DNA from: a virus | Taxonomy: Duplodnaviria; Heunggongvirae; Uroviricota; Caudoviricetes | DNA: 4,531 nucleotides | Virus record (IMG/VR): IMGVR_UViG_2706794682_000007 | Direction: 5' to 3' (one strand) | Shown here: positions 442 to 4,531 of the stretch, in pieces | How the letters are laid out: every line of letters starts with the position of its first letter | Numbering within the stretch: position 1 is the first letter of the stretch | Notes under the pieces: generated by a model | What the model was told of the DNA's origin: nothing | What the model saw: only the letters and a program-made list of their open reading frames with translations | Databases searched by the model: none | Program-made: the position numbers and the translations under genes

Positions 442-815
442 TGCGCCATGAGTTTATTTTACCTTATCCGCCGACGGTGAATACTTACTGGCGACGTCGT
501 GACAACACATATTTTGTATCAAAAGCCGGTGAGCGTTATCGCCGGGATGTGGCGCTTATTGTCCGTCAGCAGCGACTGAAATTAAGCCTGTCCGGAAGAC
601 TGGCGATAAAGATTATTGCAGAGCCACCGGATAAGCGCCGTCGTGACCTGGACAATATCCTGAAAGCACCACTGGATGCACTGACACATGCGGGAGTGTT
701 AATGGACGATGAGCAGTTTGATGAAATCAATATCGTTCGTGGTCAGCCAGTATCTGGTGGACGTCTGGGGGTGAAGATTTACCCCATAATGCATGAAGAG
801 CAGGTCAAAAAATGA
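441..815 (+). CDS. rusA: RusA-family Holliday junction resolvase (crossover junction endodeoxyribonuclease)
   Basis: 124-aa product is of RusA size and contains ...RRRDLDNILKAPLDALTHAGVLMDDEQ..., matching the catalytic acidic cluster of E. coli RusA (RRRDLDN...DAL...DD) as I recall it. AGGAGG at 425-430 lies 10 nt upstream of ATG 441. Stop overlaps the next gene's ATG at 812-815 (ATGA). Confidence 0.9.
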   Translation: MRHEFILPYPPTVNTYWRRRDNTYFVSKAGERYRRDVALIVRQQRLKLSLSGRLAIKIIAEPPDKRRRDLDNILKAPLDALTHAGVLMDDEQFDEINIVRGQPVSGGRLGVKIYPIMHEEQVKK

Positions 816-1526
816 AACTGGAAGATTTACCGAAATACTACTCCCCAAAATCCCCTTGCCTGACCGATGCATCGGCCTCAACGTCAAAAGATGCGCTGAG
901 TATCACTGATGTGATGGCCGCGCAGGGCATGACACAGAATCGGGCTGAGATGGGGTTTTCTGCGTTCCTGGGGAAAATGGGCATCAGTATGAATGACAGG
1001 GCGCGGGCAACAGAATTACTGGCAGATTATGCACTCAGTCGGTGCGATCGTGTGGCGGCGTTGAGAAAACTTCCGGCAGAAATAAAACCGGTAGTGATGC
1101 GCATTATGGCTTCGTACGCTTTTGAGGATTATGCCCGCAGCGCAGCGAGTAAAAAGCANNNNNNNNNNNNNNNNNNNNNNNNNNNNNNNNNNNNNNNNNN
1201 NNNNNNNNNNNNNNNNNNNNNNNNNNNNNNNNNNNNNNNNNNNNNNNNNNNNNNNNNNNNNNNNNNNNNNNNNNNNNNNNNNNNNNNNNNNNNNNNNNNN
1301 NNNNNNNNNNNNNNNNNNNNNNNNNNNNNNNNNNNNNNNNNNNNNNNNNNNNNNNNNNNNNNNNNNNNNNNNNNNNNNNNNNNNNNNNNNNNNNNNNNNN
1401 NNNNNNAACCAGATAACACGCGCGTCATGGGAAAAAACAGTTAAGAAATTTTATGATGCGCTGGTGACCCGGTTTGATATTGAAGAAGCATGGGCTGAGC
1501 GGCAGTTAAAAAAGGTAACTAGGTAA
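812..1526 (+). CDS. Q: lambda-type late antiterminator Q, interrupted by a 248-nt N-run
   Basis: N-terminal part (812-1158) MKLEDLPKYYSPKSPCLTD...DVMAAQGM... parallels lambda Q (MRLESVAKFHSPKSPMMSD...DVMAAMGM..., from memory). C-terminal part (1407-1526, ends TAA 1524-1526) ...WEKTVKKFYDALV...VTR parallels the lambda Q C-terminus (...WSRTVKPLYDALV...VTR). The two parts are in different frames relative to window coordinates, so the N-run is either not true length or hides a frameshift. A lambda-like PR'/qut lies immediately downstream. Confidence 0.8.
1159..1406. other. run of 248 N (assembly gap or masked sequence) inside the Q gene
   Basis: Directly visible run of n characters. All ORF-track residues shown as X derive from it. 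Confidence 0.99.
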
Positions 1527-1531
1527 CAAGG

Positions 1532-1571
1532 TTGATTTTTCCGGAATCTGTGGTAAATTCGTTATAACGAT
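1532..1571 (+). promoter_or_regulatory. PR'-like late promoter with qut-type pause element
   Basis: -35 ttgatt (1532-1537), 16-nt spacer, TGn-extended -10 taaatt (1554-1559), predicted start near 1566, then the -10-like element aacgat (1566-1571) followed by ggg. The stretch ggtaaatt...aacgatggg closely mirrors lambda PR' (GGTAAATTTGACTCAACGATGGG, from memory), where sigma70 re-binding to AACGAT causes the +16/+17 pause at which Q loads. Confidence 0.7.
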
Positions 1572-1607
1572 GGGCGTTTTATGCCTGACGTTAGAAGAGT
1601 TTCTACA

Positions 1608-1630
1608 ACCCGCCGCCGAGCGGGTTTTTT
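1608..1630 (+). terminator. intrinsic terminator, tR'-like
   Basis: Stem acccgc (1608-1613) / gcgggt (1620-1625) with loop cgccga, followed by a T-run through 1630. Lies about 45-65 nt downstream of the predicted PR' start, so would release a short 6S-like leader RNA in the absence of Q. Confidence 0.75.
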
Positions 1631-1750
1631 ATGACTGAAATCGCGTCAGTACAGTAAACGCGCTGGTGGCGGTGAATACCTGTCTTTCAGCTTGCTGGCT
1701 TTTTCGACAAGAGTTATTGGTGTGTCACGTTAACCGGAAAAGGAAAAGAC

Positions 1751-1948
1751 ATGCTAAAACAGCAGGATATGACAGAAACCGCCAGAGTGGTGTTTAATGA
1801 ATTAAGCGTTACCGAACCGGCGACAGTCGGGGAGATAGCGCAGAATACTTACCTTTCACGCGAACGCTGCCAGTTAATACTGACCCAGCTGGTTATGGCG
1901 GGTCTGGCAGACTATCAGTTCGGTTGTTACAGACGCCTTCCGCAGTGA
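1751..1948 (+). CDS. small helix-turn-helix protein (65 aa), first ORF of the Q-dependent late transcript
   Basis: ATG at 1751 with AAGGA SD about 8 nt upstream. Segment TVGEIAQNTYLSRERCQLILTQL has an HTH-like helix-turn-helix pattern (by eye). Codons checked by hand: both Ile codons are ATA, 2 of 5 Arg codons are AGA, plus one CTA. Confidence 0.55.
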   Translation: MLKQQDMTETARVVFNELSVTEPATVGEIAQNTYLSRERCQLILTQLVMAGLADYQFGCYRRLPQ

Positions 1949-1958
1949 AGGCTTTTTT
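1935..1958 (+). terminator. possible intrinsic terminator overlapping the stop codon of the 65-aa ORF
   Basis: Stem gccttc (1935-1940) / gaaggc (1947-1952), loop cgcagt, then tttttt (1953-1958). The TGA stop (1946-1948) lies in the hairpin. Only a 6-bp stem, so moderate strength. Confidence 0.45.
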
Positions 1959-1975
1959 ATTTGTGGTAAATGGGC

Positions 1976-2006
1976 GGCTGGTGGGTGTTAGGGGCACCCA
2001 CCAGCC
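1976..2006. repeat. GC-rich 12-bp perfect inverted repeat (stem-loop) with 7-nt loop
   Basis: ggctggtgggtg (1976-1987), loop ttagggg, cacccaccagcc (1995-2006); exact reverse complements. No T-run follows, so not a canonical terminator. Lies between the 65-aa ORF and the methyltransferase gene. Confidence 0.6.
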
Positions 2007-2047
2007 ATCTGCTCATGCGTTGGGTTCACAAGCAAACCTCAGGCCCA

Positions 2048-2066
2048 CTGCTTTGCGCAAAAGCAG
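2048..2066. promoter_or_regulatory. near-perfect palindrome ctgctttgcgcaaaagcag, candidate operator
   Basis: ctgcttt (2048-2054), gcgc centre, aaaagcag (2059-2066); 7-bp arms complementary with one extra A. Lies about 35 nt upstream of the methyltransferase ATG. Binding function is inferred only. Confidence 0.3.
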
Positions 2067-2098
2067 AATGAGCCTATCAGAGACAGGCTTAATGATCC

Positions 2099-3157
2099 AT
2101 GCTTAATACTGTAAAAATATCCAGTTGTGAGTTAATCAACGCCGACTGCCTGGAATTTATCCGGTCGTTACCCGAAAATTCTGTTGACCTGATAGTCACG
2201 GACCCGCCGTACTTTAAAGTGAAGCCTGAGGGCTGGGATAACCAGTGGAAGGGCGACGATGATTACCTGAAGTGGCTGGACCAGTGTCTGGCGCAGTTCT
2301 GGCGGGTGCTGAAACCTGCCGGAAGTCTTTACCTGTTCTGTGGTCATCGCCTGGCATCTGATATCGAAATCATGATGCGTGAACGCTTCAGTGTGCTGAA
2401 CCATATTATCTGGGCGAAGCCGTCCGGACGCTGGAACGGATGCAACAAGGAAAGCCTGCGGGCGTATTTCCCCGCCACAGAGCGCATTCTGTTCGCGGAA
2501 CATTATCAGGGGCCGTATCGTCCGAAAGATGCCGGGTATGCGGCGAAGGGCAGTGCACTGAAACAGCATGTGATGGCCCCGCTGATTTCTTACTTTCGTG
2601 ATGCGCGAGCTGCCCTGGGGATAACGGCAAAACAGATTGCAGATGCCACAGGAAAGAAAAACATGGTGTCGCACTGGTTCAGTGCCGGTCAGTGGCAGTT
2701 GCCGAATGAAAGCGATTATCTGAAATTACAGGCGCTGTTTGCCCGGGTGGCAGAAGAGAAGCATCGGCGTGGTGAACTGGAAAAGCTCCACCACCAGCTG
2801 GTGGATACGTATACCTCACTGAACCGGCAGTATGCGGAGCTGCTGAGTGAATATAAACATCTGCGGCGGTATTTTGGCGTGACGGTGCAGGTGCCGTATA
2901 CCGATGTGTGGACGCATAAACCGGTGCAGTTCTATCCCGGGAAACATCCGTGCGAAAAACCGGCAGAAATGCTGCAGCAGATAATCAGCGCTAGCAGTCG
3001 TCCGGGTGACCTGATTGCAGATTTTTTCATGGGGTTGGGTTCGACAGTGAAAGCGGCACTGGCGCTCGGGCGTCGTGCAATTGGCGTTGAGCTGGAGACT
3101 GAACGTTTTGAGCAGACGGTTCGGGAAGTACAGGATTTAGTCAGCCAGAACGGATGA
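2099..3157 (+). CDS. DNA amino-methyltransferase (N6-adenine or N4-cytosine, beta-class motif order), no restriction partner in window
   Basis: 352-aa ORF. Catalytic motif IV DPPY (LIVTDPPYF) near the N-terminus and AdoMet-binding motif I FxGxGS (ADFFMGLGSTV) near the C-terminus; this IV-then-I order is typical of beta-class amino-MTases. A roughly 100-aa insertion between the motifs is a likely target-recognition region. No restriction endonuclease ORF is adjacent. Confidence 0.88.
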   Translation: MLNTVKISSCELINADCLEFIRSLPENSVDLIVTDPPYFKVKPEGWDNQWKGDDDYLKWLDQCLAQFWRVLKPAGSLYLFCGHRLASDIEIMMRERFSVLNHIIWAKPSGRWNGCNKESLRAYFPATERILFAEHYQGPYRPKDAGYAAKGSALKQHVMAPLISYFRDARAALGITAKQIADATGKKNMVSHWFSAGQWQLPNESDYLKLQALFARVAEEKHRRGELEKLHHQLVDTYTSLNRQYAELLSEYKHLRRYFGVTVQVPYTDVWTHKPVQFYPGKHPCEKPAEMLQQIISASSRPGDLIADFFMGLGSTVKAALALGRRAIGVELETERFEQTVREVQDLVSQNG

Positions 3158-3197
3158 TATTGAAGAATTAATTACGCGTCGTTATTATGCGGCTCCC

Positions 3198-3273
3198 GGC
3201 CCTTTAGCTCAGTGGTGAGAGCGAGCGACTCATAATCGCCAGGTCGCTGGTTCAAATCCAGCAAGGGCCACCA
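3198..3273 (+). tRNA. ileZ: tRNA-Ile2 type (anticodon CAT, lysidine-dependent AUA reader); by anticodon alone cannot be told from tRNA-Met
   Basis: Hand-folded cloverleaf: acceptor ggccctt/aagggcc, D-stem gctc/gagc, anticodon loop ctCATaa (anticodon 3231-3233), T-arm gctgg-ttcaaat-ccagc, discriminator a, encoded CCA 3271-3273. Nearly identical to E. coli ileX as I remember it. Gene name follows the ileZ-argN-argO trio of Stx phages. Confidence 0.88.
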
Positions 3274-3280
3274 TCACATA

Positions 3281-3357
3281 CCGCCATTAGCTCATCAGGA
3301 AAGAGCGCCAGCCTTCGAAGCTGGCTGCGCGGGGTTCAAGTCCCCGATGGCGGTCCA
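3281..3357 (+). tRNA. argN: tRNA-Arg (anticodon TCG)
   Basis: Hand-folded: acceptor ccgccat/atggcgg (C1-G72), D-stem gctc/gagc, anticodon stem ccagc/gctgg with loop ctTCGaa (anticodon 3315-3317), T-arm cgggg-ttcaagt-ccccg, discriminator t, CCA 3355-3357. Confidence 0.85.
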
Positions 3358-3370
3358 TTATCTGCATCAT

Positions 3371-3447
3371 GCGTTGTTAGCTCAGCCGGACAGAGCAATT
3401 GCCTTCTAAGCAATCGGTCACTGGTTCGAATCCAGTACAACGCGCCA
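3371..3447 (+). tRNA. argO: tRNA-Arg (anticodon TCT, AGA/AGG reader, argU-like)
   Basis: Hand-folded: acceptor gcgttgt/acaacgc, D-stem gctc/gagc, anticodon stem attgc/gcaat with loop ctTCTaa (anticodon 3405-3407), T-arm actgg-ttcgaat-ccagt, discriminator g, CCA 3445-3447. Confidence 0.9.
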
Positions 3448-3461
3448 CACTTATTTTCCCT

Positions 3462-3487
3462 GGCTCGCTTTTGCGGGCCTTTTTTTT
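3462..3487 (+). terminator. strong intrinsic terminator after the tRNA trio
   Basis: Stem ggctcgc (3462-3468) / gcgggcc (3473-3479) with one G-U pair, loop tttt, followed by eight T (3480-3487). Confidence 0.8.
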
Positions 3488-3683
3488 AAATGTCTCACAA
3501 TTCAGACGGTTGACAGTTGTCTGTTTTGCGGGGAGTTTGTTAAAAGAAACTGGCATGGTGAATCCCCCTGTGCGGAGGGGCAATCAGCGAGTAGGTATAT
3601 GGGATAATCGCGGATTCAGGTGCTGGTACTGAATTCACCGGGAGGCACCCGGCACCATGCAATGGCACATAGCGCCACTCTCC

Positions 3684-3710
3684 AGCCCCTCTCCGGAGGG
3701 GCTGTTTATA
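3684..3710 (+). terminator. GC-rich hairpin with U-rich tail at the left edge of the AT-rich island; possible terminator
   Basis: agcccctc (3684-3691), loop tccg, gaggggct (3696-3703), then gtttatattgattttg on the + strand. On the - strand no U-run follows, so it is not a canonical terminator for the convergent gene. Confidence 0.45.
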
Positions 3711-3735
3711 TTGATTTTGTCAGATGTGAGTAAAC

Positions 3736-3769
3736 TCCTTATGGACTTTGTTGTTTTAGTCCATAAGGA
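3736..3769. repeat. 12-bp perfect inverted repeat overlapping the 3' end and stop codon of the reverse-strand ORF
   Basis: tccttatggact (3736-3747), 10-nt loop ttgttgtttt, agtccataagga (3758-3769). The minus-strand stop TAA (3739-3741) lies inside the left arm. Confidence 0.6.
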
Positions 3770-4074
3770 CATATTTGCAGAGTGCAACGGTTATTAAAGC
3801 ATTCATTCAATACGTTATCTGTATTTGTAGGGCATTCCTGGCTATTTTTGATTGAATTCCAGAATGTTTTATTGAATGGTACTACGTTGTAAATGGTTAC
3901 AGGTAGCACTTTGTTATTGAGCATGATGCCTGTGTGAGTCAGTGTAAATATACTTTCAGGAGGTAAGAAAGCATCCGATTGATACCAGATTATTAATTTT
4001 ATTTTACTCCATATGACTGAAAAAGATATTCCGCATGATGGCTGGATAACTGTATCAATCACAATCCACTTCAT
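3739..4074 (-). CDS. hypothetical protein (111 aa) in an AT-rich island, opposite in orientation to the phage late operon; candidate moron
   Basis: ATG is the complement of 4072-4074, with an AAGGA SD (complement of 4081-4085) 7 nt upstream. Hand translation reproduces the ORF-track protein. 6 of 13 Ile codons are ATA and 2 of 8 Leu are CTA, unlike typical E. coli usage. Several Cys near the C-terminus, no obvious signal peptide or TM segment, no family recognised. Possible sigma70 promoter on the minus strand: -35 tttaca (complement of 4136-4141) and -10 tatact (complement of 4115-4120), spacer only 15 nt, so weak evidence. Confidence 0.55.
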
Positions 4075-4319: not shown

Positions 4320-4508
4320 ATGGTGGAAAGAACCATGGCATTTAAACACTATGATGTTGTCAGGGCGGCGCCGCCGTCAGATCTTGCGGAAAAGCTGACA
4401 CATAAACTGAAAGAGGGCTGGCAGCCGTTTGGTAGTCCGGTGGCCATAACCCCTTATACCCTGAGGTGTACTGGCAATAGCGGACACTACCATTTGTTCT
4501 TTTTTTAA
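4320..4508 (+). CDS. small phage protein, DUF1737-like (assignment from memory), probably first gene leading into the lysis module
   Basis: ORF from ATG 4320 (alternative ATG 4335 preceded by a purine-rich stretch ggtggaaaga) to TAA 4506-4508. The motif KHYDVV...EGWQPFG resembles small DUF1737 proteins I recall from lambdoid prophages just upstream of holin genes. G+C content rises sharply at the ORF start. All three Arg codons are AGA/AGG and the single Ile codon is ATA. Confidence 0.55.
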   Translation: MVERTMAFKHYDVVRAAPPSDLAEKLTHKLKEGWQPFGSPVAITPYTLRCTGNSGHYHLFFF

Positions 4509-4531
4509 GCAGCCATCTGATGATATTTTTC

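Follow-up and report, generated by a model that had tools for sequence, protein, structure and literature searches.

What is a trio of tRNA genes doing in the late region of a lambdoid prophage that has no stx toxin genes? The question is raised by a viral stretch of 4,531 nucleotides (the window, meaning the whole of the DNA analyzed), in which three tRNA genes lie in tandem downstream of a DNA methyltransferase gene. The initial annotation had read them as matched to rare codons enriched in three neighbouring cargo genes, on the model of the Stx phages, where such tRNAs are thought to support translation of the toxin. Both the cassette and the idea of compensation are already known. Three phage-encoded tRNAs occur in 933W, Min27, VT2-Sakai and others (PMC4631060), two Arg tRNAs and one 'Met' tRNA adjoin stx2a (PMC7946995), and the trio has been discussed in terms of compensation in both of these papers; PMC3636060 cites Schmidt 1997 for it. 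The only new claim is the extension to small neighbouring genes, which the comparisons described below support at most weakly.

The window is the late-regulatory region of a lambdoid prophage, with the following features:

441-815: RusA.
812-1526, plus strand: gene of the late antiterminator Q, with 1160-1406 masked as N; the 5' part matches Pfam Antiterm (PF03589) with 80.9 bits.
About 1532-1560, plus strand: pR'-like late promoter, TTGATT-17-TAAATT, read directly from the sequence.
1607-1626, plus strand: tR' intrinsic terminator, from a terminator scan.
1751-1948, plus strand: gene of a 65-aa probable winged-helix (HTH) protein, conserved in Stx-type late regions.
2099-3157, plus strand: gene of an N6/N4 DNA methyltransferase (Pfam N6_N4_Mtase, 144 bits).
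3160-3188, plus strand: sigma-70-like candidate promoter of the cassette, TTGAAG-17-TATTAT, with GC-rich sequence ahead of the first tRNA, from a motif scan and conservation.
3198-3273, plus strand: tRNA-Ile2 (anticodon CAU, lysidine-type, reading AUA; ileZ-like), from ARAGORN, Rfam, kinship to ileX and PGAP.
3281-3357, plus strand: tRNA-Arg (anticodon UCG, reading CGA and probably CGG; argN-like), from ARAGORN and Rfam.
3371-3447, plus strand: tRNA-Arg (anticodon UCU, reading AGA/AGG; argO-like), from ARAGORN and Rfam.
3462-3487, plus strand: intrinsic terminator closing the tRNA cassette, from a terminator scan.
3488-3491, no strand: empty moron (stx) insertion site, from comparison with the Stx2a phage Stx2_EH2246.
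3524-3713, plus strand: prophage sRNA of the STnc100 family (RF02076), full length in Rfam.
3683-3704, plus strand: terminator of STnc100 itself, from a terminator scan.
3739-4074, minus strand: iraM homologue, 35% GC (NCBIfam NF007393).
4335-4463, plus strand: 5' fragment of a DUF1737 gene interrupted by IS600 (Pfam DUF1737, 57.6 bits).
4462-4531, no strand: terminal 70 bases of IS600 (IS3 family), 100% identical to the IS600 end.

The identity of the tRNAs is confirmed in full. ARAGORN and Rfam agree on all three genes, and the anticodons, the Ile2 assignment and the coordinates are exactly those of the initial annotation. Scores against the Rfam tRNA model are 72.5 bits for Ile2, 58.0 for Arg(UCG) and 70.1 for Arg(UCU), with a gathering score of 29. 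Minimum-energy folding of the single sequences returned a cloverleaf only for the Arg(UCG) tRNA, a result that we judge uninformative given the high covariance-model scores of all three. The genes lie on one strand in the order CAU, UCG, UCU, separated by spacers of 7 and 13 nt, and the same layout is found in four related loci (L001, L006, which is Stx2_EH2246, L008, and L016).

The anticodon cat of the first gene stands at position 34 of a canonical cloverleaf in ARAGORN; the Rfam match flags one non-canonical pair in the anticodon stem. The predicted assignment of this gene to Ile2, not Met, is based on its identity to K-12 ileX (68 of 76 positions, 89%, with the same anticodon loop and a sole acceptor-stem difference that is compensated) and on PGAP, which names its homologues tRNA-Ile. 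The acceptor stem reads 5' GGCCCUU / 3' AAGGGCC, which gives the pairs C4-G69 and C5-G68, both recognition determinants of TilS. K-12 ileX, which with ileY makes up the host's minor Ile2 tRNAs (k2C34), shares these two pairs as well as the anticodon loop. The Arg(UCU) tRNA has an anticodon loop identical to that of K-12 argU and has A20, but every stem is different. We know of no UCG tRNA-Arg in E. coli K-12, so the middle gene would add a new isoacceptor.

The Q homologue in TOE17 carries the PGAP label 'antitermination protein'. The interval 1532-1626 is probably a short late-leader transcript region, by analogy with lambda 6S RNA and with StxS (PMC7547250); a match to isrK in it is weak (18.9 bits, under the Rfam gathering score). 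The HTH protein is identical in L001 and in the phage PPyecE_EH1910 (L002), and 4 residues differ in Stx2_EH2246. It falls below threshold against Pfam TrmB (18 bits vs 25.6), and its homologues sometimes carry the PGAP label 'TrmB family transcriptional regulator'. The prophage 'rRNA methyltransferase' of a 2023 NAR paper, considered in connection with the methyltransferase gene, is a different enzyme, of the MT-A70 type (DPPW motif), encoded elsewhere on the map of that phage. The STnc100 match spans model positions 1-206 of 206 and scores 133.6 bits vs a gathering score of 47 (E = 2.5e-30).

Two of the three putative cargo genes need to be redefined. The reverse-strand ORF, described as a moron by the initial annotation, encodes a homologue of the anti-adaptor IraM, a predicted RpoS stabiliser: it matches NF007393 over residues 1-110 (162 bits vs a cutoff of 121), its product is 61% identical to K-12 IraM, and PGAP annotation concurs. 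A Pfam search of this ORF matched no family. The ORF drawn at 4320-4508 is not a native gene in that form but a fragment disrupted by IS600. In relatives DUF1737 either makes up a protein by itself or forms the N-terminal domain of a NanS-p esterase, and three of four related annotations (L001, L002, and L006) start it at ATG 4335 (MAFKHY/MTFKHY); that of 640R1 starts at 4320, like the ORF of the initial annotation. The relatives continue with ...TLMQAI..., and homology to them ends at 4464. The IS600 end matches two other copies at 100%, an annotated one in L005 and another in L014, and the window ends inside the element. The junction of DUF1737 and IS600 is present in 4 viral contigs, one of which is 100% identical over 802 bases; it was not found in a scan of genome contigs.

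The relation to Stx phages is close. Window positions 1607-3488 are 94% identical to Stx2_EH2246, in which a 1.33-kb segment containing stx2AB and flanks (L006 16642-17973) inserts exactly between window positions 3488 and 3491. In that phage stx2AB is followed by an STnc100 region that has diverged, by iraM in reverse orientation and by nanS-p. The window is therefore an Stx-phage late region whose stx site is vacant, and the initial annotation was right to see in it a trio of the Stx-phage type at the Stx-phage position. The upstream Q/pR' module differs in type from that of Stx2_EH2246, homology beginning only at tR' (1607). Inspection of the 3488/3491 junction revealed no repeat or scar that would decide between an Stx phage deleted for stx and a site never occupied.

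The ileZ-argN-argO cassette of Stx phages (933W, VT2-Sakai, and Stx2a phages) has the same anticodons, order, spacing, promoter and terminator, and is likewise placed after Q, an HTH gene and a DNA methylase. By anticodon, order, position and sequence, the cassette of the window is a member of this known family. Unlike in the Stx phages, no stx follows the cassette; the STnc100 sRNA comes next, and then the reverse iraM. A search of 5426 complete E. coli genomes turned up the cassette in 3061 (56%), in up to 13 copies per genome, and in 2287 of those 3061 the match covers at least 80% of its length. Given this abundance, its presence in a phage without stx is ordinary.

Are the tRNAs then matched to the genes around them? 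The hand counts of the initial annotation proved exact on recount. The HTH gene (1751-1948) uses ATA for 2 of 2 Ile and AGA for 2 of 5 Arg; the IraM ORF (3739-4074) uses ATA for 6 of 13 Ile; and the ORF at 4320-4508 as drawn uses AGA once and AGG twice, for 3 of 3 Arg, and ATA for 1 of 1 Ile. In the last case, a start at 4335 would put the AGA at 4329 ahead of the coding sequence, and the AGG at 4465 is IS600 sequence. Only AGG 4362 and ATA 4446-4448 are certainly native. CGA, whose count had been proposed as a gauge of the role of the UCG tRNA, is absent from the three ORFs, is used 3 times in the seven genes of the window, and is unenriched in phages. CGG occurs 14 times in the window. Nine of these are among the 22 Arg codons of the methyltransferase, the gene nearest the cassette, in which AGA/AGG account for 0 of 22.

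The significance of such counts depends on the background chosen. In a host reference of 29 E. coli genes (7,856 codons) that flank two prophages, and which may not come from the host of the window, ATA makes up 0.061 of Ile codons and AGR 0.049 of Arg codons; compared with these genes, the three ORFs give binomial p values of 0.004, 6e-5 and 1e-4. The phage background, taken from three related lambdoid phages of which two are nearly identical, is considerably higher, with 0.16-0.18 for ATA/Ile, 0.17-0.19 for AGR/Arg, and 0.18-0.19 for CGG/Arg. When the 59 degenerate codons are ranked by the ratio of phage to host usage within codon families, the top four are AGG (4.97), AGA (2.85), ATA (2.76), and CGG (2.50), followed by GGA (1.65), with CGA at about 1. 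The nominal chance that the top four would all be among the five codons of the trio is 1.1e-5. The rare-codon load is thus phage-wide, and it is the same with or without tRNAs: in Stx2_EH2246, which carries the trio, ATA/Ile is 0.183 and AGR/Arg 0.169, and in the near-isogenic PPyecE_EH1910, in which ARAGORN found no tRNA, the values are 0.170 and 0.175. Similarly, the codon adaptation of lambdoid phages with two or three tRNA genes is no different from that of phages with none (P = 0.93, t-test; PMC4631060).

With this background, it is unlikely that the trio is matched to, and kept for, the rare codons of the neighbouring HTH, IraM and DUF1737 genes, as is thought for stx. The case for it begins with the pooled ORFs, which have 58.8 ATA+AGA+AGG per 1000 codons, compared to 6.5 in host genes and 32.1 +/- 11.8 in random triples of small phage genes. 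A fraction of 0.012 of the triples reaches the pooled value, and correcting DUF1737 raises this to 0.028. Taken singly, each of the three ORFs is among the top 5-10% when 122 phage genes are ranked. However, when the methyltransferase is added to the pool the density is 28.0 per 1000 vs 20.7 phage-wide, and with a GC-adjusted background the p values are 0.03 for HTH (ATA 2/2), 0.17 for IraM (6/13) and about 0.16 for the native DUF1737, uncorrected for the post hoc choice of three of the four neighbours with the methyltransferase omitted. The enrichment described by the initial annotation is therefore real in comparison with host genes and marginal in comparison with related phages, and after adjustment for GC none of the ORFs stands clearly above the phages. 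The gene directly downstream of the cassette in Stx2 phages, stx2A, uses ATA for 15 of its 20 Ile codons (p = 4e-7 on the GC-adjusted phage background). No ORF of the window comes near this excess.

Location gives a similar answer. Within 3 kb of the tRNA site, genes have 1.4-1.7 times the density of these codons seen elsewhere in the phage. ATA+AGA+AGG per 1000 stand at 30.7 vs 18.7 in the phage with the trio and at 32.7 vs 18.9 where Ile2 is the only tRNA, but the tRNA-less PPyecE_EH1910 shows the effect as well (26.9 vs 19.6). Rare-codon density also rises as GC falls (Spearman r = -0.36) and as genes get shorter (r = -0.34). The excess is thus a property of the short, lower-GC genes between Q and lysis and not a sign of tuning to the tRNAs.

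The individual genes behave accordingly. The HTH codons AGA12, ATA43 and AGA61 are identical in the tRNA-less PPyecE_EH1910. A high ATA share is kept in all four versions of IraM compared (5/13 to 8/18 Ile), which would favor a match, but the chromosomal iraM of K-12 has ATA at 8/18 and the 12 kb examined around it contains no phage tRNA cassette. Moreover, iraM of the window is encoded on the other strand and is not part of the late transcript. Phage 640R1 keeps the AGA and AGG of DUF1737 although both of its Arg tRNAs have decayed, and in the window DUF1737 is cut short by IS600, the third Arg codon of the ORF, an AGG, being contributed by the insertion sequence. At the level of sequence, these codon comparisons contradict a dependence of the cargo rare codons on the tRNAs, and the match between trio and cargo, as the initial annotation proposed it, is at best weakly supported.

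If not the neighbours, does the cassette serve translation at all? Its borders are sharp. The candidate promoter ends 9 nt upstream of the first tRNA, and in 9 loci with three different upstream contexts its -35 TTG and -10 TTATTAT are invariant. Homology between phages starts exactly at the -35 and stops around the terminator, which is conserved in the Stx2 phage and in TOE17. About 0.03 chance promoter matches would be expected in a comparable 40-nt window; a promoter scan of the region gave no enrichment over shuffled sequence (3 found vs 4.4 expected), so the call is made from position and conservation only. On these grounds 3160-3188 is probably active as a promoter. What lies past the terminator changes from phage to phage: nothing, stx2AB, a 117-aa ORF, or TerB/DUF3927 genes. 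Other cargo sits at about the same place in L016, where it replaces the terminator of the trio (window 3460-3482), and the genes that come after the tRNA array are different in L009 and L010.

These borders, the interchangeable cargo site and the decay of tRNA members in several lineages would suit a cassette that is mainly a recombination module at a mosaic boundary, travelling with the moron site of the late region and having little present function in translation. We regard this as improbable. The Ile2 and Arg(UCU) genes stay nearly invariant while their flanks diverge to 70-88% identity, and the few changes in their stems are compensatory: of 9 loci, 8 share one Ile2 sequence and the ninth carries a compensatory change in the anticodon stem, and Arg(UCU) has a compensatory T-stem change in one relative. 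The tRNAs of the cassette thus appear to be under structural constraint. In addition, it would have to be by coincidence that the anticodons match the four codons that the phages over-use most.

The way in which members are lost is itself informative. Among the relatives Ile2 is always retained, UCU usually, and UCG is often decayed or switched in its anticodon. In some lineages, such as 640R1, both Arg tRNAs have decayed, and in some relatives the middle tRNA is now a Lys(UUU) on an Arg(UCG) scaffold. Retention follows codon excess; CGA, the Watson-Crick codon of UCG, is not enriched. It is very unlikely that the phage tRNAs serve instead to replace host tRNAs cut by the anticodon nucleases of defence systems or colicins: tRNA-Lys is a known target of such nucleases and phage T5 tRNAs counter these systems, the Lys(UUU) form cannot be explained by compensation because AAA/AAG are not rare, and Arg(UCU) is unlike host argU in all stems, but Ile2 and Arg(UCU) have exactly the anticodon loops of host ileX and argU, unlike the T5 escape tRNAs, we know of no nuclease that targets Ile2, and the anticodon set fits the codon excess very well.

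The explanation that we favor, with a probability of roughly 0.65, is that the cassette adds to the supply of scarce isoacceptors for phage translation in general, probably to a modest extent. E. coli reads the codons concerned with scarce tRNAs, namely those of ileX/ileY, argU, argW and argX. The cassette would act as a self-contained unit, with its own sigma-70 promoter and terminator, embedded in the lambdoid late operon 3' of Q, pR'/tR', the HTH gene and the methyltransferase, and just 5' of the stx site. It would supply Ile2 for AUA, the UCU tRNA for AGA/AGG and the UCG tRNA for CGA/CGG, and four of these codons (AGG, AGA, ATA and CGG) are the ones that lambdoid phages over-use most relative to E. 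coli genes. The boost would go to the whole phage gene set, plus stx2A where that gene is present, with no tuning to the HTH, IraM or DUF1737 genes, and would be greatest while phage DNA is replicating and Q-antiterminated late transcripts from it are flooding the cell. What the sequences show directly is the identity of the genes, the layout of the cassette, its conservation and the codon statistics; we infer from them that the promoter is active, that charging and modification of the tRNAs take place, and that supplementation has some fitness value.

Two observations speak against this explanation. Codon use is the same with and without the trio, which means that demand is independent of supply and that many phages manage without the trio. 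The decay of UCG, and in some lineages of both Arg tRNAs, means that any benefit is probably small or conditional. The codon-compensation model (Bailly-Bechet, Vergassola and Rocha 2007), as cited in PMC7946995, holds that phage tRNAs match phage-enriched codons, as they do here. Unlike in the model, CGA is unenriched and tRNA-less sister phages have the same codon usage. The trio looks like an optional add-on, not a driver of codon usage.

A broader role may be considered, although only tentatively. The conserved promoter with its GC-rich, discriminator-like stretch could allow the cassette to be transcribed also in the lysogen, where it might raise the supply of tRNAs for AUA and AGA/AGG, given that up to 13 copies are present, and so boost AT-rich acquired genes generally, including those of IraM, effectors and toxins. 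A precedent for tRNA-dependent expression of horizontally acquired genes is provided by leuX and virulence genes in uropathogenic E. coli. As in that case, a mobile minor tRNA could lead to higher expression of acquired AT-rich genes, iraM for example; unlike in that case, K-12 iraM has the same share of ATA, and the 12 kb examined around it hold no phage cassette. If the broader role is true, prophage tRNAs would be host-wide enablers of foreign-gene expression.

For the window itself, the reassessment matters little beyond correct annotation. Of specialist interest are the probable promoter of the cassette's own, which may act in lysogens, and the remodelling of the middle tRNA from Arg(UCG) to Lys(UUU). 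The anticodons of the trio suit the codon usage of the phage at large, not that of the adjoining genes, which is a caution against over-reading codon counts in small ORFs. For the lambdoid family, the finding means that the classic trio of the Stx phages is a widespread, self-contained module of prophages that lack stx.

Two related E. coli prophages have a tRNA-Lys(UUU) as the middle member of the tRNA array, and in other relatives this position holds a decayed Arg(UCG) gene:

L010 1596-1672, tRNA-Lys(UUU)
L013 1623-1699, tRNA-Lys(UUU)
L003 26717-26860, decayed Arg(UCG) gene; also in L009, L011, L012, and L014

The tRNA-Lys(UUU) of L010 and L013 lines up position for position with the Arg(UCG) tRNA; the acceptor, D, and T arms are the same, and the changes in the anticodon stem are compensatory. 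The Lys(UUU) tRNA is apparently an anticodon switch on the Arg scaffold. Since Lys codons are not rare, codon compensation, the supply by phage tRNAs of isoacceptors for codons commoner in phage than in host, does not explain this variant. It is a candidate counter-measure against tRNA-Lys anticodon nucleases.

The decayed Arg(UCG) gene occurs in one form, with a scrambled center and an insertion, common to several prophages. These prophages retain Ile2 and usually Arg(UCU) as well. 640R1 has lost both of its Arg tRNAs. The window also contains:

2099-3157, +, DNA methyltransferase gene

Its Arg codons include CGG in 9 of 22 cases (host 0.075, phage 0.19), with no AGA or AGG, and the Arg(UCG) tRNA could read CGG by wobble.

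The few bases 3' of the tRNA terminator are an insertion hot spot for accessory genes, empty in the window and variously occupied elsewhere:

window 3488-3491, insertion site, empty
L006 (Stx2a phage) 16642-17973, stx2AB at the insertion site
L016 (IMG/VR contig) 2343-2986, segment of ~640 bp with a 117-aa ORF, in place of the terminator region
L009 and L010 (other E. coli prophages), about 1800-2570, TerB/TciA and DUF3927 genes, 3' of the tRNA array

Two further features of the window are:

3524-3713, +, prophage small RNA of the STnc100 family (Rfam RF02076, full length, 133.6 bits, E = 2.5e-30)
4462-4531, IS600 copy interrupting the DUF1737 gene; the window ends inside it

The DUF1737/IS600 junction is also present in four IMG/VR contigs. 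As an element typical of Shigella and of some E. coli, IS600 gives a hint of the host. The STnc100 RNA has its own terminator and is flanked by the tRNA cassette and iraM; in relatives, PGAP calls a pseudo-CDS on the opposite strand over part of this stretch. STnc100 has been linked to the PasD small RNAs of pathogenic E. coli (2026 preprint).

The late region also carries the following:

1532-1626, +, pR'/tR' short-transcript unit
3739-4074, -, IraM homologue

The IraM family is known for RpoS stabilization. The pR'/tR' short transcript is putatively analogous to StxS and belongs to a different Q/pR' type. The type and full length of the Q antiterminator gene itself are not readable from the window, because a run of 247 N (1160-1406) masks its middle. 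StxS activates rpoS translation in EHEC (PMC7547250). With the short RNA and the IraM homologue, this single stretch of prophage may carry two functions directed at RpoS.
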